DNA of 64,000 nucleotides from Allorhizobium sp. (GTDB lineage: Bacteria; Pseudomonadota; Alphaproteobacteria; Rhizobiales; Rhizobiaceae). The stretch is taken from the NCBI GenBank assembly GCA_045377275.1, contig JBJIOA010000031.1, forward strand, positions 26,202 to 90,201. The letters run 5' to 3'. The notes beneath the pieces are model-generated. The model was not told where the DNA came from and did not search any database. It worked only from the letters and a program-made list of their open reading frames with translations. The position numbers and the translations under genes were made by a program. Below are positions 1 to 42,403 of this stretch, in pieces (the stretch's first letter is position 1; every line of letters starts with the position of its first letter).

Positions 1-219
1 CTTGCCGTCACCGACCAGCCACTGGGTGACGTCGTGGCGCTCATCCAGCGCCAGCATTCCGGCTGGATCGTTACGCCCGAAAGCGACATTGCCGCCCTGA
101 GGGTGACCGGCCTCTATGATCTCAGCGACCCCGACAAGGCGTTGATGGCGCTCGTCGCACCCTTCGGGCTGCAGGTCCGCAAGGCCTCACCTTATCTGAG
201 AGTCATCTCTAGCCGATAA
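1..219 (+). CDS. FecR-family anti-sigma/transmembrane sensor, C-terminal fragment (5' end lies outside the window)
   Basis: Frame 1 is open from base 1 to TAA at 217-219. The tail ...ALRVTGLYDLSDPDKALMALVAPFGLQVRK... resembles the FecR C-terminal domain. It sits directly upstream of an STN-domain TonB-dependent transducer. Confidence 0.5.
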   Translation, partial: LAVTDQPLGDVVALIQRQHSGWIVTPESDIAALRVTGLYDLSDPDKALMALVAPFGLQVRKASPYLRVISSR

Positions 220-9397: not shown

Positions 9398-11712
9398 GAT
9401 TTTCGTCCCTGCCTGAGGACGACGAAGGTCGACGCGCCGAGCAGGATTGCGGCGAGGATCTGCGCGATGGTGAATTCCCGGGCGTTGTTGGAGAACCAGC
9501 CGGCGACGATCAGACGACCGTTCTGCAGGCTGAGCGGCTTCGTCTCATAAAGACGCTCATGGGCCGCGATCTTCCGCTCGACCAGGGCTCCGTCGCCCTT
9601 CAGGGCATTGACAGACCCACCGAGACGTCCCCAAACATCGGTTTGAACCAGGCTTCTCAAGCCTTCTGAAAGCAGGGCTGGGTCTCGAACTGCGACCACG
9701 GTCCAGGCATCCCTGTCGTTGACGAGGCGCTGGGCAACCAGCATGTCCGCCTCGCCGCTGACCTGATAGACGGCGTCGGCCGAGAGGACATTGCCGTCTT
9801 CGACGAGGCCGAGCTGGGCGGCCTGGATGCGGATACGGGTGCTGATCGCGTCGTAAAGCTTGTGGGTTCCGTCCCGTAGGCGAGCGACGATCGAGGCCGG
9901 ACCCGGTTCGTCCACCGTCACCGGCGTACCGTCGATAGAAAGTGCGGGGGCGGCCACTTCGACCGGCGCGCCGCTCGGATCTGCTGTGTTCTGATCGATG
10001 GACAGGTTGAGGTCGCTGCCGACCGTATTGACGTTAATCCCGAGATCGGACTGCAATTGGCCCGAAAAACCGGAGAAGGTTCCGAAGGCCAGCAGAGGCC
10101 CCTGGCGGTCCAGTGGCCAGCCAGAAGTGACCAAAACGGGACTGACTTCGCGCGAGACATAGGCCATCTTGGCGAGGAACGTCCCGGCTGCACCAAGGAC
10201 AGCGTTGTCCATGTTTTCGACGTAGAGCGGCATGGCTGCATCGCCGTCGAAGTCCGCCTTGCCGGCGGAGACGACGGCGAGATCCGGAGCGTGGCCGATC
10301 TGGGCAAACGCCGGGATGTTGAGGGTGCTGTCACCCTTGATGAAGAAGCGTGCCGTGGTGTTGCCGAGGGCCGAGGGATCGCAGACCGTATCGGATGCCG
10401 CGTGCAGTTCCGCCTCGAACTCGATGATATTATAGCCGGGTCTCAGCTTGTCGAGGGGGATCGGCAGGACCTGGCCGTCGATGCGGCCGGAGCGCGCCTC
10501 GCCGAGCCGGATGTTGGCGACGGTGTCACCGTTTGCGCGGATGACCATCTGGGCCGTCGGCGAAAGACCGGCGGCGTATTCGGCATTCAGTTTCAGGTTG
10601 GCGGCACCATAGTCACCCGGATAGAAATCCGCAGGAAGACTGAAGGCGATCGCCTGCTGAAAGTGGCGGCCGGCAAAAGGACGCGCAACGAAGCCGAGTT
10701 CGGCGAGCGTGTTCGCGCTGCCGGATTCGAGCAGGCGTCCCCGACGATTGCCGAGCGCGCGACGCCCTTGGGGCGAACCGTCGGTCACCTCCGTCTGGGC
10801 GCGCAGGGTAAAGTCCCGGATGGTGCTTGCGAGTTCATCGGCTGTCCGAGCCGCCACCACCATGCGGCTACGGCCGGTGGCCGGATCGATGTCGAACTCG
10901 ACGCCGGCCTGCTGCGGGACAACACCGGTCAGGTCGCGCACGGTACCAAAGGTGCCAACCACAAGATCGATGCCGGGACCGGAGCCGGCACTGTTGTCGA
11001 CGGTGACCACCGGACGATCGAAATGGCCGAGGATCGACAGCGCCTGCACAACGGCAAAGGTGCGGTCGATATCCTCACCAGCGGCGCCGCGCGGGATCAG
11101 GCCGTTGATGGCGGCATGACCGTTGACGTCGCGGCTATAGGCAAGAAGCGTCGAGACATCGCTCGGGTCGTCCTTGGCATTGCGGGTGAAGACGAAGCCG
11201 CTGCGCGCCGGATCGATCTGCGTCCACAATTCATAGGTCGCCTCGACGGAGCAATCGACGCGATGCGACTGATCCATCAGCACGGTCACGGCATTGTAGC
11301 CGGGCTGCAGAAGCCCCTTCGGCAGCTCAAGCTCGACCTGATGGGCGTCACCGGACTTCAGGTTGACAGAGCCGATGTCCCGGTCGTTGACGAAGATGCG
11401 CATCGCCGAGCGTTCCGGTGCGACCGAAATGGCCGTCTGCAAGGTGATGATCAGCTTGGCCGAGCCCGTCATTTCCGAGGGCAGCACGACAAAGGGATAT
11501 TCGCGATTGGCGGTCTCGCCGGTGAAGAACAGGTCCTGCTTGTCTGCAATCAGACGGCGGATCTGGCTTTCATCCTGGAAATATTCCTTGGCTTCAGTGT
11601 CCACCTTGACCTGCGGCGCCAGAACGAAGCCGGAGGAAGTGGATGCGCCGGCCGGCGAGGCTGCCAAGAGCAGACCGACGCTCGCCAGCAAAGTGAGATG
11701 TTGCCTGATCAT
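9394..11712 (-). CDS. celB: cellulose synthase regulatory subunit BcsB (CelB)
   Basis: Start chosen at MIRQHLTLLASVGLLLAASPAGAST (ATG 11712), which overlaps the celA stop as ATGA. Large periplasmic protein with a single C-terminal TM helix (…ILAAILLGASTFVVL), as in BcsB. Confidence 0.88.
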   Translation of the reverse strand: MIRQHLTLLASVGLLLAASPAGASTSSGFVLAPQVKVDTEAKEYFQDESQIRRLIADKQDLFFTGETANREYPFVVLPSEMTGSAKLIITLQTAISVAPERSAMRIFVNDRDIGSVNLKSGDAHQVELELPKGLLQPGYNAVTVLMDQSHRVDCSVEATYELWTQIDPARSGFVFTRNAKDDPSDVSTLLAYSRDVNGHAAINGLIPRGAAGEDIDRTFAVVQALSILGHFDRPVVTVDNSAGSGPGIDLVVGTFGTVRDLTGVVPQQAGVEFDIDPATGRSRMVVAARTADELASTIRDFTLRAQTEVTDGSPQGRRALGNRRGRLLESGSANTLAELGFVARPFAGRHFQQAIAFSLPADFYPGDYGAANLKLNAEYAAGLSPTAQMVIRANGDTVANIRLGEARSGRIDGQVLPIPLDKLRPGYNIIEFEAELHAASDTVCDPSALGNTTARFFIKGDSTLNIPAFAQIGHAPDLAVVSAGKADFDGDAAMPLYVENMDNAVLGAAGTFLAKMAYVSREVSPVLVTSGWPLDRQGPLLAFGTFSGFSGQLQSDLGINVNTVGSDLNLSIDQNTADPSGAPVEVAAPALSIDGTPVTVDEPGPASIVARLRDGTHKLYDAISTRIRIQAAQLGLVEDGNVLSADAVYQVSGEADMLVAQRLVNDRDAWTVVAVRDPALLSEGLRSLVQTDVWGRLGGSVNALKGDGALVERKIAAHERLYETKPLSLQNGRLIVAGWFSNNAREFTIAQILAAILLGASTFVVLRQGRKS

Positions 11713-34179: not shown

Positions 34180-34533
34180 TCAGCGAGCCACGGGACGGCT
34201 CACCAGCGACTGCAGCGTATAGACCAGGATCGCGATGCCGATGGCGCCCATGGCGGCGACGCCGAGCAGCACGACGACATCAACGGGGCCGCCAATGTCG
34301 CGGAATCCTGAGCGGGTCACGGTCTGAACGAACCAGACAGCGCCAATCGCGCCGATTGGCATGGCAAGCTGGGCCAGCAGGAACTTCTTCCAGGAAACCT
34401 GGCGATCGCGGATCAGCACGTAGAGATAAGCGAGCGTGATCACGGCTGCGAGTACGACCATGACCCAGAACAGGGTATGGCCGAAGATCTCTTCGAGAAC
34501 CGCGACGATCATTCCGACAGTCATGTCCTTCAT
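34180..34533 (-). CDS. small integral membrane protein co-transcribed with the sulfide-dehydrogenase-like flavoprotein
   Basis: 117 aa with 3-4 TM helices, 10 bp downstream of the flavoprotein gene. Confidence 0.6.
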   Translation of the reverse strand: MKDMTVGMIVAVLEEIFGHTLFWVMVVLAAVITLAYLYVLIRDRQVSWKKFLLAQLAMPIGAIGAVWFVQTVTRSGFRDIGGPVDVVVLLGVAAMGAIGIAILVYTLQSLVSRPVAR

Positions 34534-34543
34534 GGCATCCTCC

Positions 34544-35845
34544 TCAGGCGCGACCGCGCAGCATGGCGTTGTAGGTGGGTTTCAGGGCGATCTCCTTCAT
34601 CAGCCAGGAAATCCAGAGCTCTTCGAGCGGGGCGATCAGTCCGGGGAAGGACGGGACGAGATTGTCCTTGTAGTCGAACTCGACCAGCATAGCCGAGCCG
34701 ATGCGGGTGATCAGCGGGCAGGACGTATAGCCGTTATAGCTTTCCTTGCTCTCGCGCCCTTCGATCTGGGCGACGAGTTGATCGACCGCGACGGGCACCT
34801 GCCATTTGACGCTGGCTGCCGTCTTGCCCTTCGGTACGCCGGCGATATCGCCGACCGCGAAGACATCGGGGTAGCGGACATGGCGCATGGTATGCTTGTC
34901 GACCTCGACCCAGCCCTGGCCCACCCATTTGTCAGCCCAGGGCAGCGGGCTGTTGAGGATCACATCGGGCGCCCGCATCGGCGGGATGACATTGGTGAAG
35001 TCGTAGCCGAGCTCCTTGTCGCCTTCCGGCGTGGTGAAGGTGGCGATCTTGCGGACGGGATCGATCTTCTTCATCACGTGTTCGTAGACCGTGTCGATGC
35101 CACGCTCCTCATAGAGCATGCGCACCTTTTCGGAGACGATCGGCACGCCGAACAGCGCCTTGTTGTGGGCCGCATAGACGATCTTGGAGTTGCTGCGGGT
35201 GCCCTTGCGGGTGAGGTAATCTTCGGTGAGGAAGGTGTATTTCAAAGGAGCGCCGGCGCATTTCATCTCGGTAGCAGGGCGCGAGAAGAGTGCGAGGCCG
35301 CCCTTGTCGGTGAAGCGGTTCATCTCCTCCCAGGTCTTCTCTGCGTAATCTGGGCCGGCATAGACCGAACCGATGCCGTCTTTGCCGATCAGGTCAAGCG
35401 ACATGCCTTCGATGGCTGCGTAGTCAAGCTTGAGACCGGTTGCGACGAAGAGGAAATCGTATTCGATCGCCTTGCCGCTCTCCGTCACCACCTTCTTGCC
35501 GTCGGGATCGATTTCGGCCGCACCTTCTTCGATCCATTCGACACCTGAAGGCAGCCAGTCGGCCGTGCCGGACACGGAATAGGAGGCCGGCTTGAGGCCC
35601 GCGGCGATCAGCGTGAATCCCGGCTGATACCAGTGCTGCTTGCGGGGGTCGAGGATGGTGATCTTGGCGCCATCGAGTCGGCTGGACAACTGATTGGCGA
35701 GTGCCGTTCCGGCCGCGCCTGCCCCCAGGATCAGTATGCGGGCACTGGTCTGGACGGGCTGTGCCGTCGCGCGCTGCAACGGTGCTGCGGCCAGTGCCGC
35801 ACCGCCGGCTGCCAAACCGAAGAATTGTCGTCTGCTGGTTTTCAT
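34544..35845 (-). CDS. Tat-exported FAD-dependent sulfide dehydrogenase/sulfide:quinone oxidoreductase-like flavoprotein (FccB/SQR family)
   Basis: Twin-arginine signal MKTSRRQFFGLAAGGAALAA. FAD-binding motif ILILGAGAAGTA. A second dinucleotide-fold motif …VFAVGDIAG…. Confidence 0.8.
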   Translation of the reverse strand: MKTSRRQFFGLAAGGAALAAAPLQRATAQPVQTSARILILGAGAAGTALANQLSSRLDGAKITILDPRKQHWYQPGFTLIAAGLKPASYSVSGTADWLPSGVEWIEEGAAEIDPDGKKVVTESGKAIEYDFLFVATGLKLDYAAIEGMSLDLIGKDGIGSVYAGPDYAEKTWEEMNRFTDKGGLALFSRPATEMKCAGAPLKYTFLTEDYLTRKGTRSNSKIVYAAHNKALFGVPIVSEKVRMLYEERGIDTVYEHVMKKIDPVRKIATFTTPEGDKELGYDFTNVIPPMRAPDVILNSPLPWADKWVGQGWVEVDKHTMRHVRYPDVFAVGDIAGVPKGKTAASVKWQVPVAVDQLVAQIEGRESKESYNGYTSCPLITRIGSAMLVEFDYKDNLVPSFPGLIAPLEELWISWLMKEIALKPTYNAMLRGRA

Positions 35846-36196
35846 TGCGTCCTCCCCCGGGCGACACGGGCGCCCCTTGCGTATTCTGGATCCCGCCTCG
35901 CCTGGCCACCTCTGGCTGTGGCAAAAGCCCTCATCGTGTGTTGCAGATCTTTATATATACTATTTCGTATCTTCAATGCAACGTAGTTATTGAGGTCACG
36001 TGTTGAACCGTCGTCGGGGATATCCTTGCACCCGCATTGCCGCAGGATCACCGGGCTTGTAACAGTTTATCGCGCAAGGCCGATGAAGCTGGCAAAGACC
36101 CAAACTTGGCCGGTCAGGTCGCATTTAAGTTATTCTAACAAGACCTTAACGTGCCCTAGAGATTTCAGCTCGATCACAGTCAGAGTTCCTTTCATC

Positions 36197-37594
36197 ATGA
36201 CGTTGCCGAAGAGCCGGGAGACCCTCTCTCTCGCCACACATATTGCAAGCCTCACACTTGCCGCCGCCTGCCTGGCATTGTCCGTGAGTGGCACCCTCGC
36301 GCAGCAAGCCCAGAATGTGGCGCCGCGGACGGGCAGCGCATCGATCAACGAGATTGAGGCTAAGCGAGAGGCCTTGTTCGGCCGTATGATGGCAGCACCC
36401 GACGATCTAGACACCGCTTTCGAATATGCAGCGCTGTCCTCCGAGGCCGGCGATCTGGAAGGGGCGATCTCGACGCTCGAACGCATGCTGATCTACGCGC
36501 CCGGCCTGCCCCGGCTGCAGCTTGAACTCGGCGTGCTCTATTATCGTCTCGGCGCCTACGAGACCGCTCGGCAGTATTTCGACGGGGCGAAGTCCGCAGG
36601 CGACATGCCGCCGGAGGTCTCCGCCAAGGTCGATCAGTATCTTTCGGCCATCGACCAGCGCGGCGCCCCCTCGCAGTTCTCCGGCATGATCAGGACCGGT
36701 ATCCGATATCAGAGCAATGCCAATGCGGGCCCGGGCAATTCGACGGTGACGCTCAATGGTCTCTCCTACACGCTGGACGGCTTGAGCGTCGCGGGCGAGG
36801 ACTTCAACGGCTTCGTCAATGGCGGGCTGCGCTATCGCCATGATACCGATATCCAGGGACTATCGCTGGAGGCAGGCCTTTCCGGCTATGCCGCCGGCTA
36901 CCGCGACCGCAACACGCTGAACACGGCAGCGGTCGAGGCCTATGCCGGCCCGGTCTTCGATCTTGGACGTTTCGGGCTCGACGACCGGACGCTCTCCGTC
37001 CTCCTGACCACCAGCGGCGTTCTGATCGAGGGCGACCGGTATATGGCATCCGCCGGGGTCTCGACGACGATCGACTGGCAGGTGACACCGGTCGACAGTC
37101 TGTCTGGCAGCCTGCAATACCGCTTTGAGGATTTTTCCAACACCAAGTCGCGGCGAACCGCTGAATTGCAGAGCGGCCATCGGTTCGACGGCCAGTTCTC
37201 CTGGTCGCATAATCTCACACAAGACCTAAGCCTGACGGGGCGCCTTCTTGCGACCCGGCGCGACGCGGAGGTGGGCTACCTGTCCTCCAGCGAACTGGGC
37301 GGGGCGATCTCCGGCACCTATCGCTATGCCGCCCTTATCGGCGAAGGGCCGGCCTGGATCACCGGGGTGGAAGCGGCCGTCGCCGGACGCGGCTATGACG
37401 ATCCTGACCGTATGATCAATTCTGCGGAGCGCCAGCGCGACACCGACTTCAGCCTCAACCTACGCCAGATCGTGCCCTTCAGCGAGCGCATGGCGCTGGT
37501 GGCGGAGGCCGGTTACCGCAAGGTCTGGTCGAACTACGACATCAAGAGCTTCGACAACATCTCGCTGTCGATCGGCATCCAGGCCGCGTTCTAG
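36197..37594 (+). CDS. outer-membrane protein with N-terminal TPR region and C-terminal beta-barrel (Slam/DUF560-like surface-protein translocon)
   Basis: ATG at 36197 with a signal peptide …ACLALSVSGTLAQQ. TPR-like helices AFEYAALSSEAGDLEGAISTLERMLIYAPGLPRLQLELGVLYYRLGAYETARQYF. Alternating-strand region ending …SNYDIKSFDNISLSIGIQAAF. Confidence 0.65.
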   Translation: MTLPKSRETLSLATHIASLTLAAACLALSVSGTLAQQAQNVAPRTGSASINEIEAKREALFGRMMAAPDDLDTAFEYAALSSEAGDLEGAISTLERMLIYAPGLPRLQLELGVLYYRLGAYETARQYFDGAKSAGDMPPEVSAKVDQYLSAIDQRGAPSQFSGMIRTGIRYQSNANAGPGNSTVTLNGLSYTLDGLSVAGEDFNGFVNGGLRYRHDTDIQGLSLEAGLSGYAAGYRDRNTLNTAAVEAYAGPVFDLGRFGLDDRTLSVLLTTSGVLIEGDRYMASAGVSTTIDWQVTPVDSLSGSLQYRFEDFSNTKSRRTAELQSGHRFDGQFSWSHNLTQDLSLTGRLLATRRDAEVGYLSSSELGGAISGTYRYAALIGEGPAWITGVEAAVAGRGYDDPDRMINSAERQRDTDFSLNLRQIVPFSERMALVAEAGYRKVWSNYDIKSFDNISLSIGIQAAF

Positions 37595-37604
37595 GAGCAT
37601 CACG

Positions 37605-40172
37605 ATGAAATCGAACACCCGTCATGCCCTGCTCGCCGCATCCGCGGCACTTTTCGTCATCGCAGCGCATCCCGTCAGCGCAGAGACCGATGTCGCTGGT
37701 GTCACCGCGGCGGTCAATCCCGATGCAAGCACCATCGACCGCGCCGGCAAGGCGCGGCTGATCTCGCTCGGCGACCCCGTGATCCGCAATCACCGCATCG
37801 AAACCAGCGGTGCCGGCCTCGTGCAGATCCTGCTTGCCGACGGAACGTCGTTTACCGTTGGCCCCAATTCGTCAGTGGTGATCGACAGCTTTGTCTATGA
37901 TCCCGAAAAGAATACGGCGTCGCTGGCGGCAACCATGAGCAAGGGCGCGCTGCGCTTCATCGGTGGCAAGGCATCGAAGGCGAGCGGCAATGTGACGATC
38001 AAGACGCCGATCGGCACGGCCGGCATTCGCGGCGCGGTGGTCGATATCAACCTCAGCGGCCAGACGCCCGACGGCCAGCCCCTGCCACCACACATGACGC
38101 TGGTCTATGGCAAGGAAGTGCAGCTCACCGGCAATGGCGCGCCGCAGCGGTTGTTCAAACAGGGCTTCTCCATCGTTGCCGGCGAGGGCCAGCCGCGCGT
38201 CCAGCGCACCCCGCCGCAATGGGTGAGCGGGCTGCAGCAGGTGCTCGCCGGCCGTCCCGGCCAGAGCGGTGGCGCGAGCAGCGTGCCGACGGAGCAGACT
38301 GTCGCCAGCAGCCCGGTTGCTGAAAGCAATTCAGCCCAGTTGCCGTCGGAGAATGCCATCCCCGTGCCGACACCGCGCCCGGTCGTGACGACACCGGTCG
38401 AGGAGGTGGCGAGCGCTTCGCAGCGTGATGTGGGGACAAGGCCGCAGGTGCCGGGCGGCGATGGAAACAATAGCGGCGGCGGTGGTGACGGCGGCAATGA
38501 CGAAACAGAGATCGCCGTTTCCGTGCTTTCGCCCAAGGAGGCTTCCGGAGGGAGTGGGCCTCTGGTGCCGCCCAGTGGCAGCTTCAATGGTCCGAGGCTC
38601 GGCGAATCTCGGGGTACACTCACCCGAAACGCCGATGGGACCCTAAGCGGCGCCGATGGCGACGGTAACAGCTTCACCCTGCCGGCGTTGAGCTCAACCA
38701 GCGCTCTGACGGAGCGGAGCGTATCCGGCTCAGTCAACGGGACAGCCGTGACCGGGACGGCCTACACCGGAAGCGGTGGCTTTTTCACCTATATGCTGAC
38801 GGCCGGCAGCAGCGATCCAGAGGCGTTTTATGTCATCGGCGGCACGCCGGCAAATGCGACCACAACGCTGTCTACGGGGCAGATCCTGGCTTACGTGTTG
38901 GAACCGGATCTGCTTGCTGCGTTGACAAATGCTGAAGACACGACCATCCCGTTCACCGGCAGCTTCATCGGTGGCAATGAAGCCGTGGTGAGCGACCTTC
39001 TCGTTGGTGGGACCAGTGGTGGAAGCGGCACGACGATCGGACGTGCGCTGCAGGCCTCGCTAAGCATCAACGGCACAGGTGCCGGCCAGACGAGTGCGAT
39101 TAATGTGTTCAGCGGGAGTTTTGATGCGCTGAATGGTGGAGGCTATGGCCTCGTCGCCTCGACGGCGGGATCAAGCCGGTCCAATGCTATCAATTCGGCG
39201 GTGAACAGCCAGGGCAAGGCCGGGAGTATCGGCTCCACCGCCGGGAAGGATCATTTCCTCGGTACAAACGGCGAGTATCTGGTGATCGGCTCGGGATCGA
39301 TCGGTGCAACACAATTCGGCTCTCCCGCTCCCGTTTATCAAGGATATGAGCAGGTACATGTTGCGAGCCGCGATGATGAGGCGACCGCTTCAGGCAGCCG
39401 CACCTTCAGCGGACAAGTTGGCGGCTTCTCCTCCGCAGTAATCCGGCAATGGGGCAGCAACAATCTGACGCGCGGCAGCTTCAGCCTCAACTTCGACAAT
39501 GCTGCGGGCACGTTCACCGGGGGCATCAGCACCGGCGGCGGCAGCTACTTCGCCGAATTTTACGGAGAAGCCGACCGATCCTATCTGTCCGACCAAGTGA
39601 TTGCCGGAACCAATTCAAAGGACGGCGCCTATATGGTGTCGTCTGCCGTGGTGCCGGCAAAGATCTTCAACAACAACACCAGCGCCGCCATTTGTAACGC
39701 CTGTGAATTCATGACATGGGGCTGGTGGGGTCGCAATGTCTATGGCGAAGTCAACTACACGGTCCATCTCGGCAACTGGATCATCGGCAAGCAGCCGGAA
39801 AACAGCGCTCTGCCCACCTCGGGTACCGCGACCTATAACGGCAATGCCGTGGGCACGGTGGTCAATGGCAGCGAACAATACATCGCCACAGGCACGATGA
39901 CCTCGACAATGGATTTCAACGCGCGCTCTGGGACCGTTTCTGTCTCCAACTACGACAGCAAGAGTTTCAGCGCAGAGGTGAACTTCGGCAGCGGCGCGGC
40001 GACTTTCGGCGGCAACGTGACGAGCGGCGTCGCGTCCGGCAGCGTCACCGGCGCCTTCGCCGCCAATGGCACCGATCCCGTCAAGGGCATCATGGGCAAT
40101 TTCTCGGCGACTGATGGCAGCTGGTCGTCGACCGGGATCTTTGCCGGCAGCACGACAGGCGTCGTTCCGTGA
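37605..40172 (+). CDS. secreted FecR-domain protein with C-terminal TbpB/fHbp-type 8-stranded beta-barrel domain
   Basis: Sec signal …VIAAHPVSA/ETD with no lipobox Cys. FecR-type domain …IETSGAGLVQILLADGTSFTVGPNSSVVI…LRFIGGK…VTIKTPIGTAGIRGAVVDI. C-terminus ATYNGNAVGTV…TMDFNARSGTVSVSN…VTGAFAANGTDPVKGIMGNF…TGIFAGS. Confidence 0.75.
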   Translation: MKSNTRHALLAASAALFVIAAHPVSAETDVAGVTAAVNPDASTIDRAGKARLISLGDPVIRNHRIETSGAGLVQILLADGTSFTVGPNSSVVIDSFVYDPEKNTASLAATMSKGALRFIGGKASKASGNVTIKTPIGTAGIRGAVVDINLSGQTPDGQPLPPHMTLVYGKEVQLTGNGAPQRLFKQGFSIVAGEGQPRVQRTPPQWVSGLQQVLAGRPGQSGGASSVPTEQTVASSPVAESNSAQLPSENAIPVPTPRPVVTTPVEEVASASQRDVGTRPQVPGGDGNNSGGGGDGGNDETEIAVSVLSPKEASGGSGPLVPPSGSFNGPRLGESRGTLTRNADGTLSGADGDGNSFTLPALSSTSALTERSVSGSVNGTAVTGTAYTGSGGFFTYMLTAGSSDPEAFYVIGGTPANATTTLSTGQILAYVLEPDLLAALTNAEDTTIPFTGSFIGGNEAVVSDLLVGGTSGGSGTTIGRALQASLSINGTGAGQTSAINVFSGSFDALNGGGYGLVASTAGSSRSNAINSAVNSQGKAGSIGSTAGKDHFLGTNGEYLVIGSGSIGATQFGSPAPVYQGYEQVHVASRDDEATASGSRTFSGQVGGFSSAVIRQWGSNNLTRGSFSLNFDNAAGTFTGGISTGGGSYFAEFYGEADRSYLSDQVIAGTNSKDGAYMVSSAVVPAKIFNNNTSAAICNACEFMTWGWWGRNVYGEVNYTVHLGNWIIGKQPENSALPTSGTATYNGNAVGTVVNGSEQYIATGTMTSTMDFNARSGTVSVSNYDSKSFSAEVNFGSGAATFGGNVTSGVASGSVTGAFAANGTDPVKGIMGNFSATDGSWSSTGIFAGSTTGVVP

Positions 40173-42403
40173 CCAAAGCAGCTGGTGGCCTGCGCCCCGA
40201 ACAAAGAGAAGAGCGGCCTGTATCGCGCCGCCTGTCCTCCTCGCAGCGCCGCAAGCTCGGCGTTGTGCTTGTCGGCCTGGCAGCGCTCTTGGCCGTTATT
40301 CTCGGCCATGCCGCTTTCTCCTCCCAGGCCTTTCGGCTCACGGCGCTGGTCTTCGACACCTATCAGGTGATGAAGCCGCGGGACGCGACTGATCCGCCGG
40401 TTGCGGTCATCGACATCGACGAAGTGTCGATCGGCAAGCTCGGACAATGGCCCTGGTCGCGTGACACGGTGGCCGAGATGGTGACCAGGGCAAGCAGTCT
40501 TGGCGCGGCAGCAATCGGCTTTGACATCGTGTTTTCCGAACCGGACCGGACGGCACCGGCGCGCCTCATCGAAGCGATGCGGCGCCGGGGGATCGACATC
40601 GACATCGGCGCCGATCTGCCGGACCCGGATGAACAACTGGCCGAGGTGGTGGCCTCGAACGCCGTGGCGCTCGGGATCGCGCTCAGCAATGAAACCACCG
40701 CGCCGGCACCTGAGCCGAAGGCGGGATTTTCGTTTCTGGGACCCGACCCGCGGGCGCGCCTCTCGCCCTATTCAGGCGCCTTGTCCAACCTTTCAGCGTT
40801 GACCGAACGCGCGACCGCAATGGGCTATTTCTCCTTCCCGCCAACGCCTGACAACATCATCCGCACCTTCCCGCTCGTCTCCCTGAGCGGTGACCGGCTC
40901 TATCCGGCGCTTTCGATCGAGACGCTCCGGATCGCACAACAGGAGGGCTCCTTCGTGCTGCGCTCTGCGGGCACAGAGGAAGGCTCGGCCTTCACGGACT
41001 TAAGGGTCGGGGCGCTCGACGTGCCGCTCTCGGCCGACGGCGAGATCTGGATCTACTATTCCGGCCTTCCGAACATGCCAGTCATATCGGCCGCCGATCT
41101 CTTCGACCCGACGAAAGCCGACACATTGGCAGGTCTGACCCAGGGGCGCATCCTGCTGGTCGGCACCAGCGCGGTCGGCCTTCGCGATATCGTGGCGACC
41201 CCGGTCGATCCGGCGATGCCCGGCGTCAAGGTACATGCCGAAATCATCGACCAGATCGCCAGCGGGGTATTCTTGCAGCGGCCCGACTGGATCCTCGGGG
41301 CAGAACGGGCGGCGGCTGTTATCGTCGGCTTGATCCTGCTGACGGTCCTTGCGACAGCCGCCCCGGCTGTTTCGGTGGTGACGGGCCTGCTGCTGGCCGG
41401 GCTTGTCGCCGGCGGATCCTGGTTTGCCTATTACCGGGCGTTGACGCTTTTCGATCCGCTGCTGCCCATGACTGCCCTCGGCGCGGTGTTGCTGACAGCA
41501 CTGCCGCTCCTTCTGATGCTTACCCATCGGGAGAAACGCTTCGTGCGTGAGAGCTTCGGCCGCTATCTCTCGCCGACCCTGGTCGAACGCCTCTCCGAAA
41601 ACCCGGAAGGTCTTACGCTGGGCGGCGAGGACCGCGAACTCACGATTCTCTTTTCCGACATCAGAGGCTTTACCGGCCTCTCCGAAAAATTGACGCCGAC
41701 CGAGCTCACGGGGCTCCTCAACAACTTCCTGACGCCGATGACCGACGTGCTTTTGCAGCGCGAGGCGACGATCGACAAATATATCGGCGATGCGATCATG
41801 GCCTTCTGGAATGCGCCGCTCGACATTGCCGAACATCCGCAGAAGGCGTGCCTCGCGGCGCTCGACATGGTCGCGGCCCTGGACCGTCTGAACCGCGAAA
41901 GCGGCATGACGCTCAAGATCGGCATCGGGCTGAACACAGGCATGGCCTGTGTCGGCAATCTCGGCTCCGACCAGCGCTTCAGCTATTCCTGCCTCGGCGA
42001 CAGCGTCAATTTGGCCTCCCGCGTCGAAGGCATGACCAAGCTTTACGACGTCTCGATCCTGGTCACCGAGGAGGTACGGGGTGGCACGACGGGTCTCGTT
42101 TTTGCTGAGGTGGACCGGGTGCGCGTCGTCGGCCGGCAGGCGCCCGTGACGCTCTATGCGCTGATCGGTCGTGCGGATGAAGCGGCGTCGGAGCAGAAGG
42201 ACCTGCTGACCGCGCATGGTGCCTTCATCCGTGCCTGGCAAACGGGCGACTTGTTGGCTGCACGCAACCTGTTGAAAGTCCTCCTGGTACTGCCGCAGAA
42301 CCCGCTCACCGGCACGCATGCACTCTACCGGGAAAGGCTCTCAGAACTCCCCGACACCGCTCCGGAAAACTGGGGCGGCGTTACTATCGCAAGCAGCAAA
42401 TGA
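40169..42403 (+). CDS. CHASE2-sensor class III adenylate/guanylate cyclase
   Basis: GTG start overlaps the upstream stop (GTGA). Periplasmic CHASE2-like region …VAVIDIDEVSIGKLGQWPWSRD…FDIVFSEPDR, TM helices, then the cyclase core LTILFSDIRGFTGLSE…KYIGDAIMAFWNAP…GIGLNTG…VGNLGS…YSCLGDSVNLASRVEG. Confidence 0.9.
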   Translation: MTKAAGGLRPEQREERPVSRRLSSSQRRKLGVVLVGLAALLAVILGHAAFSSQAFRLTALVFDTYQVMKPRDATDPPVAVIDIDEVSIGKLGQWPWSRDTVAEMVTRASSLGAAAIGFDIVFSEPDRTAPARLIEAMRRRGIDIDIGADLPDPDEQLAEVVASNAVALGIALSNETTAPAPEPKAGFSFLGPDPRARLSPYSGALSNLSALTERATAMGYFSFPPTPDNIIRTFPLVSLSGDRLYPALSIETLRIAQQEGSFVLRSAGTEEGSAFTDLRVGALDVPLSADGEIWIYYSGLPNMPVISAADLFDPTKADTLAGLTQGRILLVGTSAVGLRDIVATPVDPAMPGVKVHAEIIDQIASGVFLQRPDWILGAERAAAVIVGLILLTVLATAAPAVSVVTGLLLAGLVAGGSWFAYYRALTLFDPLLPMTALGAVLLTALPLLLMLTHREKRFVRESFGRYLSPTLVERLSENPEGLTLGGEDRELTILFSDIRGFTGLSEKLTPTELTGLLNNFLTPMTDVLLQREATIDKYIGDAIMAFWNAPLDIAEHPQKACLAALDMVAALDRLNRESGMTLKIGIGLNTGMACVGNLGSDQRFSYSCLGDSVNLASRVEGMTKLYDVSILVTEEVRGGTTGLVFAEVDRVRVVGRQAPVTLYALIGRADEAASEQKDLLTAHGAFIRAWQTGDLLAARNLLKVLLVLPQNPLTGTHALYRERLSELPDTAPENWGGVTIASSK

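Follow-up and report, generated by a model that had tools for sequence, protein, structure and literature searches.

Slam proteins, the outer-membrane components of the type 11 secretion system (T11SS), are built from tetratricopeptide repeats (TPRs) and a 14-strand beta-barrel (PMC5449769). In the DUF560 sequence-similarity network of Grossman et al. 2021, cluster 1 alone contains any characterised protein. CHASE2 sensor domains, the stimulus of which was reported to be unknown in 2016 (PMC5192318), have been described next to FecR-domain proteins. In Sinorhizobium meliloti, NsrA is genetically required for signalling by the CHASE2 cyclase CyaK (PMC7529298), and cyaD1 adjoins the gene of the FecR protein SMc02177 (PMC5498481). 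In Burkholderia, a LysM-FecR protein is paired with a CHASE2 histidine kinase (PMC5192318). In Campylobacterota, a CHASE2 cyclase clusters with a FecR "outer membrane protein" as well as a TPR protein (and a phosphodiesterase), which were proposed to form one pathway (PMC9239204). T11SS, TbpB-like cargo, FecR-CHASE2 pairing, NsrA-dependent cyclases and the CHASE2/FecR/TPR cluster are, in short, known already. Here we describe three adjacent genes, g1, g2 and g3, in a 64,000-nucleotide stretch of Allorhizobium sp. (assembly GCA_045377275.1, contig JBJIOA010000031.1, positions 26,202 to 90,201), hereafter the window. They encode, respectively, what is most likely a divergent T11SS outer-membrane protein, a FecR-domain protein with a TbpB-like body, and a CHASE2 class III cyclase (Table 1).

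The three genes are co-directional and tightly packed. The spacing between g1 and g2 is 10 bp (37595-37604), and the TGA stop codon of g2 (40170-40172) overlaps the GTG start codon of g3 (40169-40171) in a GTGA junction; g2 has a good Shine-Dalgarno sequence (AGGAG, about 9 nt 5' of the start). This layout had been described in an earlier, sequence-only reading of the same DNA. It agrees with the open reading frame (ORF) coordinates, and the peptide stretches quoted there are all present in the translations. Our preferred interpretation, to which we give an even chance, is that the three genes form a trans-envelope sensor, through which a surface signal would be converted into cyclic AMP (cAMP).

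The gene order is conserved in many genera. One genome per species was scanned with the g1 alignment, which provided 80 loci from other species (labelled L). Most belong to Hyphomicrobiales, and the genera include Rhizobium/Allorhizobium, Peteryoungia, Jiella, Aureimonas, Mesorhizobium, Devosia, Pleomorphomonas, Breoghania, Stappia, Hoeflea, Pannonibacter and Methyloligella. Downstream parts were scored by tblastn with separate parts, and counts cover the loci having enough downstream sequence. A FecR gene directly follows g1 in all loci (76/76), a TbpB-type barrel is encoded downstream of g1 in 62 of 63, and CHASE2 plus cyclase domains are found downstream in 45 of 62. As judged from these matches, the invariant core consists of g1 and the FecR-type head, to which the barrel body is added in nearly every locus and the cyclase in about three quarters of the loci. 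The same triad was recovered when starting from short g2 relatives, occurs also on a Paracoccus aminophilus plasmid, and persists while flanking genes change completely. The three genes are thus conserved neighbours, as the sequence-only reading had anticipated; its complete three-gene unit is present in the 45 loci, the cyclase being missing from the other 17, which keep g1 and g2.

According to profile and model evidence, g2 consists of a FecR-type head, a flexible linker and a bilobed TbpB-like body ending in a T11SS-type targeting barrel. Alignment of 21 relatives revealed two conserved blocks, an N-terminal one of about 260 residues and a C-terminal one of about 165 residues starting at a CxxC...WGWWG motif, with a variable middle between them. 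Short g2 relatives (about 545-580 aa) keep both conserved blocks and lack most of the middle. The Sec signal and the FecR-type domain named in the sequence-only reading are borne out, the former as a signal peptidase I (SPI)-type peptide. No lipobox Cys is found in the family (0/21 members), which places g2 in the non-lipidated, hemophilin-like cargo subclass and not among surface lipoproteins. An assignment of g2 to the FecR anti-sigma factors was rejected, because the FecR domain follows a cleavable signal peptide and neither a sigma factor nor a TonB-dependent receptor is encoded nearby.

The FecR head is the best conserved part of g2 (84-96% identity among close relatives, versus 36-78% for the middle). 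A profile of the first 310 residues or so, made from 8 family members, had a single match in the PDB, 5IX9 (E 2.7e-6), a structure of the N-terminal domain of MpIBP, an RTX adhesin of Marinomonas. The same structure served as the template of the LapA retention module, a model in which the folded module is periplasmic and a flexible linker is threaded through the pore (bioRxiv 10.1101/198937). NCBIfam retention_LapA matches 7 of the 8 members below its cut-off (24-26 bits versus 50), and the best NCBIfam matches of the N-domain are the Leptospira surface adhesins Lsa33 (8/8 members) and LipL45 (7/8). Downstream of the FecR domain, a conserved segment features invariant or near-invariant columns at T202, P203, L214, G222, G223, P228, N242, S243, P253, P255, R258 and P259. 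In the AlphaFold2 (AF2) model, the linker at aa 215-300 has a predicted local distance difference test (pLDDT) score below 50, and G (14), P (11) and S (11) residues abound among its 86 residues. Linker length and composition vary widely in the family, while both protein ends are conserved; for instance, the homologue on Paracoccus pAMI5 (L082:5901-7868) carries collagen-like PTG repeats.

From about aa 300 onwards, the g2 model is all-beta and mostly of high confidence (pLDDT 80-93), and its C-terminus contains exactly 8 strands (aa 741-849, pLDDT 89-95). All 38 Foldseek matches in the PDB with E <= 0.001 are Slam/T11SS cargo (TbpB, LbpB, NHBA, fHbp and the hemophilin HphA). Full-length TbpB is matched with E 6.7e-10 across about 540 aligned columns, and LbpB is matched likewise. 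TM-scores normalised to the target are 0.58 for the TbpB C-lobe and 0.71-0.75 for the NHBA barrel; just past E 0.001 follow the fHbp C-terminal barrel (0.73), further NHBA barrel chains (0.81-0.82) and the HpuA barrel (0.60). By sequence, a profile of the C-terminal block matches NHBA (1.7e-5) and fHbp in the PDB, and nothing else. The C-terminus of g2 itself stays below the curated cut-offs of FHBP_C (19.9 bits versus 28.1, E 1.4e-3), TbpB_B_D (10.8 versus 26, E 0.71) and NCBIfam slam_lipo (30.8 versus 80, E 3.2e-7). Among 15 family members, 8 and 7 match the two Pfam barrel models at E <= 1 (best E 1.5e-5 and 2.9e-5). The TbpB-type barrel proposed from the letters of g2 consequently stands as a fold, as evidenced by the 8 strands, the Foldseek matches and the NHBA/fHbp profile, and falls short of the Pfam and NCBIfam thresholds. 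Just 5' of the barrel, a CxxC (C697 and C700, 39693-39704) and a following WGWWG (W705-W708) are invariant in the family. These are its sole conserved cysteines, and they could form a disulfide or a metal site.

The partner of this cargo-like protein, g1, is most likely a divergent T11SS (Slam/DUF560) outer-membrane protein, by transitive evidence. Since the direct profile test of g1 gave no match, its membership rests on relatives and on the published network. The AF2 model, built from a 21-sequence alignment of full-length relatives, features a signal peptide, 6 TPR helices and exactly 14 strands (aa 159-464); its mean pLDDT is 77.6 and that of the barrel about 81-92. Pfam and NCBIfam searches with g1 returned TPR matches alone (TPR_19, 29.9 bits, cut-off 25). 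The Pfam family SlipAM (PF04575; gathering threshold 22 bits, profile length 288 positions) matches 11 of 21 g1 family members at E <= 1. Four full-length relatives with 38-44% identity to g1 (P0092, P0109, P0093 and P0116) exceed the gathering score, at 30.0, 27.0, 25.6 and 25.3 bits, and three of them (P0092, P0109 and P0116) align over about positions 61-288 of the profile. Moreover, the R. wuzhouense orthologue (L017, 66% identical) is by exact sequence PYB77136.1/DMY87_01820, a protein annotated with PF04575/IPR007655 and listed as a node of cluster 8 in the DUF560 network; that cluster has 30 nodes. A lipobox-like motif in g1 (LAAC, Cys25, 36269-36271) is probably incidental, as the Cys is missing in most orthologues, and g1 was not retained as a lipoprotein.

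The third gene encodes a CHASE2 sensor fused to a class III cyclase, exactly as had been read from the sequence: both Pfam domains are recognised, and the catalytic motifs (FSD497IRGFT, K537YIGD541 and GDSVN615LASR619) are all present with the canonical metal, substrate and transition-state residues. From the predicted membrane segments, CHASE2 would be periplasmic and the catalytic domain cytoplasmic. Along its entire length the protein shares 32% identity with S. meliloti CyaK (E 6e-71), and with a CHASE2 cyclase encoded beside cob genes (the cyaD2-type locus) the identity is about 40%. It is probably an adenylate cyclase, ATP specificity being suggested by the Lys residue and by homologues; "adenylate cyclase" is also the JGI label for cluster members.

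A FecR gene adjoins every CHASE2 cyclase locus inspected, namely cyaK, the cyaD2-type locus (where the FecR neighbour has 295 aa), Ruegeria and Methylosinus plasmids, and Paracoccus. FecR-CHASE2 pairing is therefore general and already partly published. The sequence-only reading, aware of no described Slam-FecR-CHASE2 coupling, missed that FecR-CHASE2 adjacency is in print (PMC5498481, PMC5192318), as is the CHASE2/FecR/TPR cluster (PMC9239204); its statements on NsrA and the cyclases CyaD1, CyaD2 and CyaK are correct (PMC7529298, PMC13001267). On S. meliloti pSymB, the gene of a 1197-aa "FecR domain-containing protein" (FecR at aa 66-160, TPR at aa 417-531) ends at the first base of cyaK. From its length and position, this protein is almost certainly NsrA, the barrel of which is placed at aa 600-1200 in a figure legend (PMC7529298). 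The idea that NsrA is a fusion of g2 and g1 was rejected: hhalign of the g1 profile matched the TPRs alone, and weakly (probability 70%, E 4e-5), and no DUF560 signal was found in the barrel half of the cyaK-upstream protein. Orthology of NsrA and g2 was rejected as well, the BLASTP match being marginal (E 0.018) and confined to the FecR part. In terms of sequence, the relationship between NsrA and g1/g2 is an analogy of parts, not orthology.

Table 1. Features of the three-gene locus and its immediate surroundings (coordinates of the window; aa, protein coordinates).
Feature	Protein	Window	Strand	Basis
Upstream intergenic region (351 bp), presumed promoter/regulatory region of the three-gene unit		35846-36196	+	between divergent SQR-like gene (- strand, ends 35845) and g1 ATG
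g1, T11SS/Slam-type outer-membrane protein (most likely)	465 aa, counted from ATG (mechanical ORF begins at TTG 35990)	36197-37594	+	AF2 model, relatives' SlipAM scores, cluster 8 orthologue
g1 Sec signal	aa ~1-35		+	AF2 model
g1 three TPRs	aa 50-156	36344-36664	+	Pfam TPR matches; AF2 helices
g1 14-strand beta-barrel (predicted)	aa 159-465	36671-37591	+	AF2 model
g2, FecR-type/TbpB-like protein	855 aa	37605-40172	+	
g2 Sec (SPI-type) signal peptide (...AHPVSA/ETD), without lipobox	aa 1-26	37605-37682	+	hydrophobic stretch aa 8-26
g2 N-terminal FecR-type domain	aa 27-200	37683-38204	+	Pfam FecR aa 64-152, 35 bits, cut-off 24
g2 conserved post-FecR segment (RTPP...LAGRPG...NS...IPVPxPRP), then disordered Gly/Pro/Ser-rich linker	aa 201-260, then to aa ~300	38205-38504	+	alignment, AF2
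g2 beta-rich TbpB-like body: N-lobe-like part, C-lobe handle	aa ~301-645, aa ~646-735	38505-39809	+	AF2, Foldseek
g2 C-terminal 8-strand barrel (TbpB/fHbp/NHBA type), with stop	aa ~736-855	39810-40172	+	AF2, PDB profile, Foldseek
g3, CHASE2 class III cyclase, GTG start codon	744 aa	40169-42403	+	Pfam CHASE2 9e-53, Guanylate_cyc 2.5e-24
g3 membrane segments	first segment aa 27-53; cluster aa 373-454		+	hydrophobic stretches
g3 CHASE2, predicted periplasmic	aa 47-391	40307-41341	+	Pfam
g3 cyclase domain, predicted cytoplasmic	aa 490-665	41636-42163	+	Pfam, catalytic motifs
SulP transporter-STAS-cNMP-binding protein, convergent with g3, 6 bp away	756 aa	42410-44680	-	Pfam Sulfate_transp 2.7e-26, STAS 2.3e-12, cNMP_binding 2.3e-17

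Genes for proteins that bind cyclic nucleoside monophosphates (cNMP) flank the unit in several arrangements, which supports its interpretation as a putative cyclic-nucleotide signalling island. The SulP-STAS-cNMP protein encoded next to g3 is a candidate receiver of the cyclic nucleotide. In Pseudaminobacter, Pleomorphomonas, A. vitis, Mesorhizobium and Breoghania, its orthologues show 47-50% identity and keep their link to g1-g2 in another gene order (upstream, on the opposite strand). Other triads are flanked by genes for a cNMP-binding patatin phospholipase, a glutaminase-STAS-cNMP protein, small Crp/POPDC-like cNMP-binding proteins, or an MBL-fold protein that might be a phosphodiesterase (L086:10922-15437; L089:2808-5351 and 10989-11636; L082:2212-4038). 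The effector set around the triad differs among lineages.

Sequence variation is distributed unevenly along the unit. The public relatives that come closest, Rhizobium sp. RU33A and Agrobacterium albertimagni AOL15, have 93-94% identity in g1, and close relatives share 80-94% identity in g1, the FecR head, CHASE2 and the cyclase domain. The g2 middle (38505-39540, aa ~300-645), compared among L001-L019, falls into discrete classes of about 77%, about 58-67% and about 36-40% identity. In L002, for instance, identities are 94% in g1, 95% in the head, 39% in the middle, 84% in the barrel and 87% in CHASE2. The pattern resembles allelic replacement of a lobe exposed on the surface, and is one that surface receptors, TbpB among them, show in their exposed lobes. 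The conserved head would fit a fixed periplasmic partner and the hypervariable middle an exposed lobe, and such strong diversification of putative surface lobes hints at strain-specific ligands from hosts, phages or competitors. Distance-matrix (mirror-tree) correlations are highest among g1, the FecR head and CHASE2 (r 0.94-0.96), and lower with the cyclase domain or the barrel (0.78-0.92). This ranking is consistent with the proposed sensor, and only suggestive, as shared descent explains most of it.

From the folds, families and gene order described above we infer the following relay, its decisive steps being export by g1, retention of the FecR head, FecR-CHASE2 contact and the cyclic-nucleotide output. 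g1 would insert into the outer membrane with its TPRs in the periplasm, which g2 would reach through Sec. The C-terminal barrel of g2 may act as a targeting domain and engage g1, so that the TbpB-like body (aa ~300-855) would be displayed outside the cell and bind some ligand. The FecR-type head would fold in the periplasm and stay there, much as the LapA retention module is pictured below its pore, tethered by the Gly/Pro-rich linker, which would pass through the g1 pore or beside it. Contact between this head and the CHASE2 domain of g3 would allow ligand binding outside to alter cAMP synthesis, and neighbouring cNMP-binding proteins, here the SulP-STAS-cNMP transporter, may read the cyclic nucleotide. 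The unit would then be a functional equivalent of NsrA-CyaK, in which FecR, TPRs and barrel are split over two proteins and a hypervariable surface antenna is added.

Several observations weigh against this relay. SlipAM/DUF560 (PF04575) has no match to g1 itself at E <= 1 in Pfam or NCBIfam. Foldseek of the g1 model against the PDB returned generic outer-membrane barrels with no Slam structure among the matches, and hence does not discriminate. These matches comprise generic porins and TPR-barrel exporters (BcsC, PelB and PgaA), the best 14-strand match being OmpG (TM-score normalised to the target 0.65); by sequence, the g1 profile matched only the TPRs of O-GlcNAc transferase in the PDB. 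The sequence-only reading had named g1 not scoring as DUF560/Slam as grounds for giving up its proposal. The TPR-plus-barrel shape it recognised holds, the direct DUF560 match does not, and the evidence from relatives and from the cluster 8 orthologue points the opposite way. As for g2, AF2 modelled the FecR part with low confidence, and the similarity of the head to the retention module, being under the NCBIfam cut-off, is a lead on possible topology rather than membership. We know of no T11SS cargo that remains threaded through a membrane. If g2 were wholly exported, as known T11SS cargo is (lipid-anchored on the surface or released; PMC8406197, PMC12282271), its FecR domain could not reach CHASE2. 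In S. meliloti, the FecR protein SMc02177 is dispensable for signal perception (PMC5498481).

Gene content provides two further counterarguments. In 17 of 62 loci the barrel is present and no CHASE2 cyclase occurs within 10 kb. Because these loci keep g1 and g2, the two genes form an autonomous core having a function that needs no cyclase. In two other loci (L078 and L034), g1 is followed by a barrel-less FecR protein (285 and 292 aa) and then by the cyclase. There, g1 cannot serve as the translocon of a barrel cargo, because the FecR protein has no barrel; g1 thus has the FecR part as its partner even where Slam-type cargo is lacking. Both barrel-less proteins (L078:11291-12148 and L034:11302-12180) have Cys-rich C-termini (...CYYCCDGPCG and ...CLPYCD). 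The specific version of the relay in which a T11SS pore and its cargo would work as a signalling device, with a receptor threaded through or docked on the barrel, a periplasmic FecR head and a mechanical signal to CHASE2, is tentative, and we consider it somewhat unlikely.

Another explanation is that g1 and g2 are an ordinary, self-contained T11SS pair. g2 would be exported whole, FecR domain included, to serve outside the cell as an adhesin, as a receptor for nutrients or metals, or in the manner of a hemophore, and the cyclase would be a frequent neighbour for regulatory reasons; cAMP may control g1 and g2, or the cyclase may sense something else. The 17 cyclase-less loci speak for this, as do the full export of known T11SS cargo (PMC8406197, PMC12282271), the Leptospira surface adhesins Lsa33 and LipL45 as top NCBIfam matches of the N-domain, and the hypervariable middle, reminiscent of antigenically variable TbpB. 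In cyclase-less loci, the genes downstream are unrelated, and some of these loci carry a giant FecR-headed protein (3078 aa, L050:12021-21257) or two or three tandem FecR-barrel genes (two in L079:11341-15306; also L064). Such genes suggest an expansion of the cargo repertoire, and proteins like those of L050 and L079 are typical of surface-protein arsenals. The other inspected CHASE2 cyclase loci nevertheless each have their own FecR partner, and here g2 is the sole FecR protein and overlaps the start of g3. The genetics of NsrA connect a CHASE2 cyclase with a protein made of FecR, TPR and barrel (PMC7529298). Furthermore, conservation in g2 is strongest in the N-domain, which co-varies with CHASE2, and the barrel-less FecR proteins of L078 and L034 still lie between g1 and the cyclase. 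Taken together, we find a self-contained pair unlikely.

A different role for g1 would also account for its invariant pairing with FecR (76/76 loci), which holds even where the barrel is missing (L078 and L034). g1 may be an NsrA-like outer-membrane sensor or anchor and no translocon; its TPRs would hold the FecR protein, the TbpB-like part would be periplasmic and serve ligand binding or scaffolding, and FecR would relay the signal to CHASE2. NsrA, in which FecR, TPR and barrel are joined in one chain, argues for a FecR-TPR-barrel complex, the TPRs of g1 are weakly linked to those of NsrA by the hhalign match given above, and the conserved extended segment downstream of FecR is a peptide of the type bound by TPRs. 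Against an anchoring role, the g2 barrel is a hallmark of T11SS cargo kept in 62 of 63 loci, relatives of g1 are SlipAM members, and the NsrA barrel has no similarity to g1 or DUF560. That near-identical operons should diverge so extremely in the g2 middle is also hard to reconcile with a periplasmic protein. We rate this explanation as quite improbable. Chance packing of three unrelated envelope genes has next to no probability, given an order conserved across many Hyphomicrobiales genera and on a Paracoccus plasmid, the 10-bp and overlapping junctions, and a unit that persists while its flanks change.

Promoter-like and terminator-like signals within the three genes showed no excess over shuffled sequence in our scans, which fits a single transcription unit without proving it. 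In the presumed regulatory region upstream of g1 (35846-36196), no consensus sigma-70 site was found, and the best matches to Clr and CRP boxes 5' of g1 have 2 mismatches. Neighbours in the window are SQR-like, DUF5368, DsbA-like, SMC, SulP-cNMP and MutY genes. The SQR-like flavoprotein gene and the DUF5368 gene (34180-35845, minus strand) lie between the DsbA-like gene and g1. The pair is found in 4 of 19 close relatives (L001, L002, L006 and L009); elsewhere the DsbA-like gene abuts g1. It is a presence/absence polymorphism directly 5' of the operon. Between the SulP-cNMP gene and the g1 homologue, the Mesorhizobium/Pleomorphomonas group has genes for a C39-peptidase ABC exporter and another ABC protein (L042:5958-9765; L033:5758-9845, minus strand), and in Stappia and Pannonibacter a 5'-nucleotidase/metallophosphoesterase gene precedes g1.

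In the literature searched, we did not find a TPR protein of such a cluster recognised as a T11SS pore, a FecR protein recognised as TbpB-like T11SS cargo with a retention-module-like head, or a secretion-system pair feeding a cyclase. The papers on FecR-CHASE2 systems (PMC7529298, PMC5498481, PMC5192318, PMC9239204) make no mention of Slam, T11SS or TbpB-like folds, and two T11SS papers (PMC12282271, PMC8406197) make none of FecR-fused cargo, CHASE2 or a cyclase. FecR appears in the supplement of the T11SS cargo paper as a FecI/FecR-type neighbour of cluster 1 only, and no FecR or CHASE2 fusion was found in the portion of the T11SS network table consulted. For CHASE2, a widespread sensor domain, the uniform adjacency of FecR and the genetics of NsrA point to protein partners as input, and the locus offers a compact three-gene system for probing such input. 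Cluster 8 of the network would gain a concrete and unexpected cargo and role, which would widen T11SS from nutrient capture and adhesion to signal transduction. For rhizobia, the unit suggests a possible mechanism for the outer-membrane step in NsrA/CyaK signalling. If the threaded-receptor version were true, it would represent a new kind of trans-envelope signalling without TonB or a sigma factor, and CHASE2 domains in general would take their input from FecR-domain partners, not from small ligands.

Compared with known T11SS/Slam systems (TbpB, LbpB, fHbp, HpuA and hemophilin in Neisseria, Moraxella, Acinetobacter and Xenorhabdus), the locus likewise appears to encode a TPR protein with a 14-strand DUF560-type barrel beside a Sec-exported cargo with a C-terminal 8-strand targeting barrel (PMC5449769, PMC8406197), and the g2 body resembles bilobed TbpB. 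It differs in that the g1 orthologue belongs to the uncharacterised cluster 8 instead of the studied cluster 1 and g1 stays below the Pfam threshold, that g2 is non-lipidated and has an N-terminal FecR-type domain, and that the unit is coupled to a cyclase, not to TonB-dependent uptake. RTX adhesins such as LapA and MpIBP, with an N-terminal retention module and a TolC-like pore, share with g2 a folded N-domain, a flexible linker and a large extracellular (in g2, predicted) beta-rich part. In contrast, they are type 1 secretion substrates with C-terminal RTX repeats and no Sec signal, whereas g2 is Sec-dependent and paired with a putative DUF560 barrel, and the g1-g2-g3 unit contains no LapG, LapD or type 1 secretion gene.

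In FecA-FecR-FecI, and in the Burkholderia LysM-FecR protein with its CHASE2 kinase (PMC5192318), a periplasmic FecR-type domain connects an event at the envelope with a signalling protein of the inner membrane, and in the latter FecR is adjacent to CHASE2, as it is here. However, g2 has a cleavable signal peptide in place of the cytoplasmic anti-sigma domain and membrane anchor, no extracytoplasmic function (ECF) sigma factor or TonB-dependent transducer is encoded nearby, and the predicted output is a cyclase rather than a sigma factor or a kinase. The Campylobacterota cluster (PMC9239204) brings together the same three domain labels. It was described by domain names alone, with no link to Slam/T11SS or TbpB-like proteins, and its likeness to g1 and g2 is one of FecR and TPR labels only. 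NsrA-CyaK of S. meliloti, with the related CyaD1/CyaD2, likewise combines an outer-membrane component with a CHASE2 adenylate cyclase in overlapping genes, the upstream protein carrying FecR and TPRs. However, NsrA is a single 1197-aa chain with a large C-terminal barrel that is not DUF560-like and with no TbpB-like module, whereas here the FecR domain and the TPR-barrel reside on separate proteins and a putative surface antenna is added.

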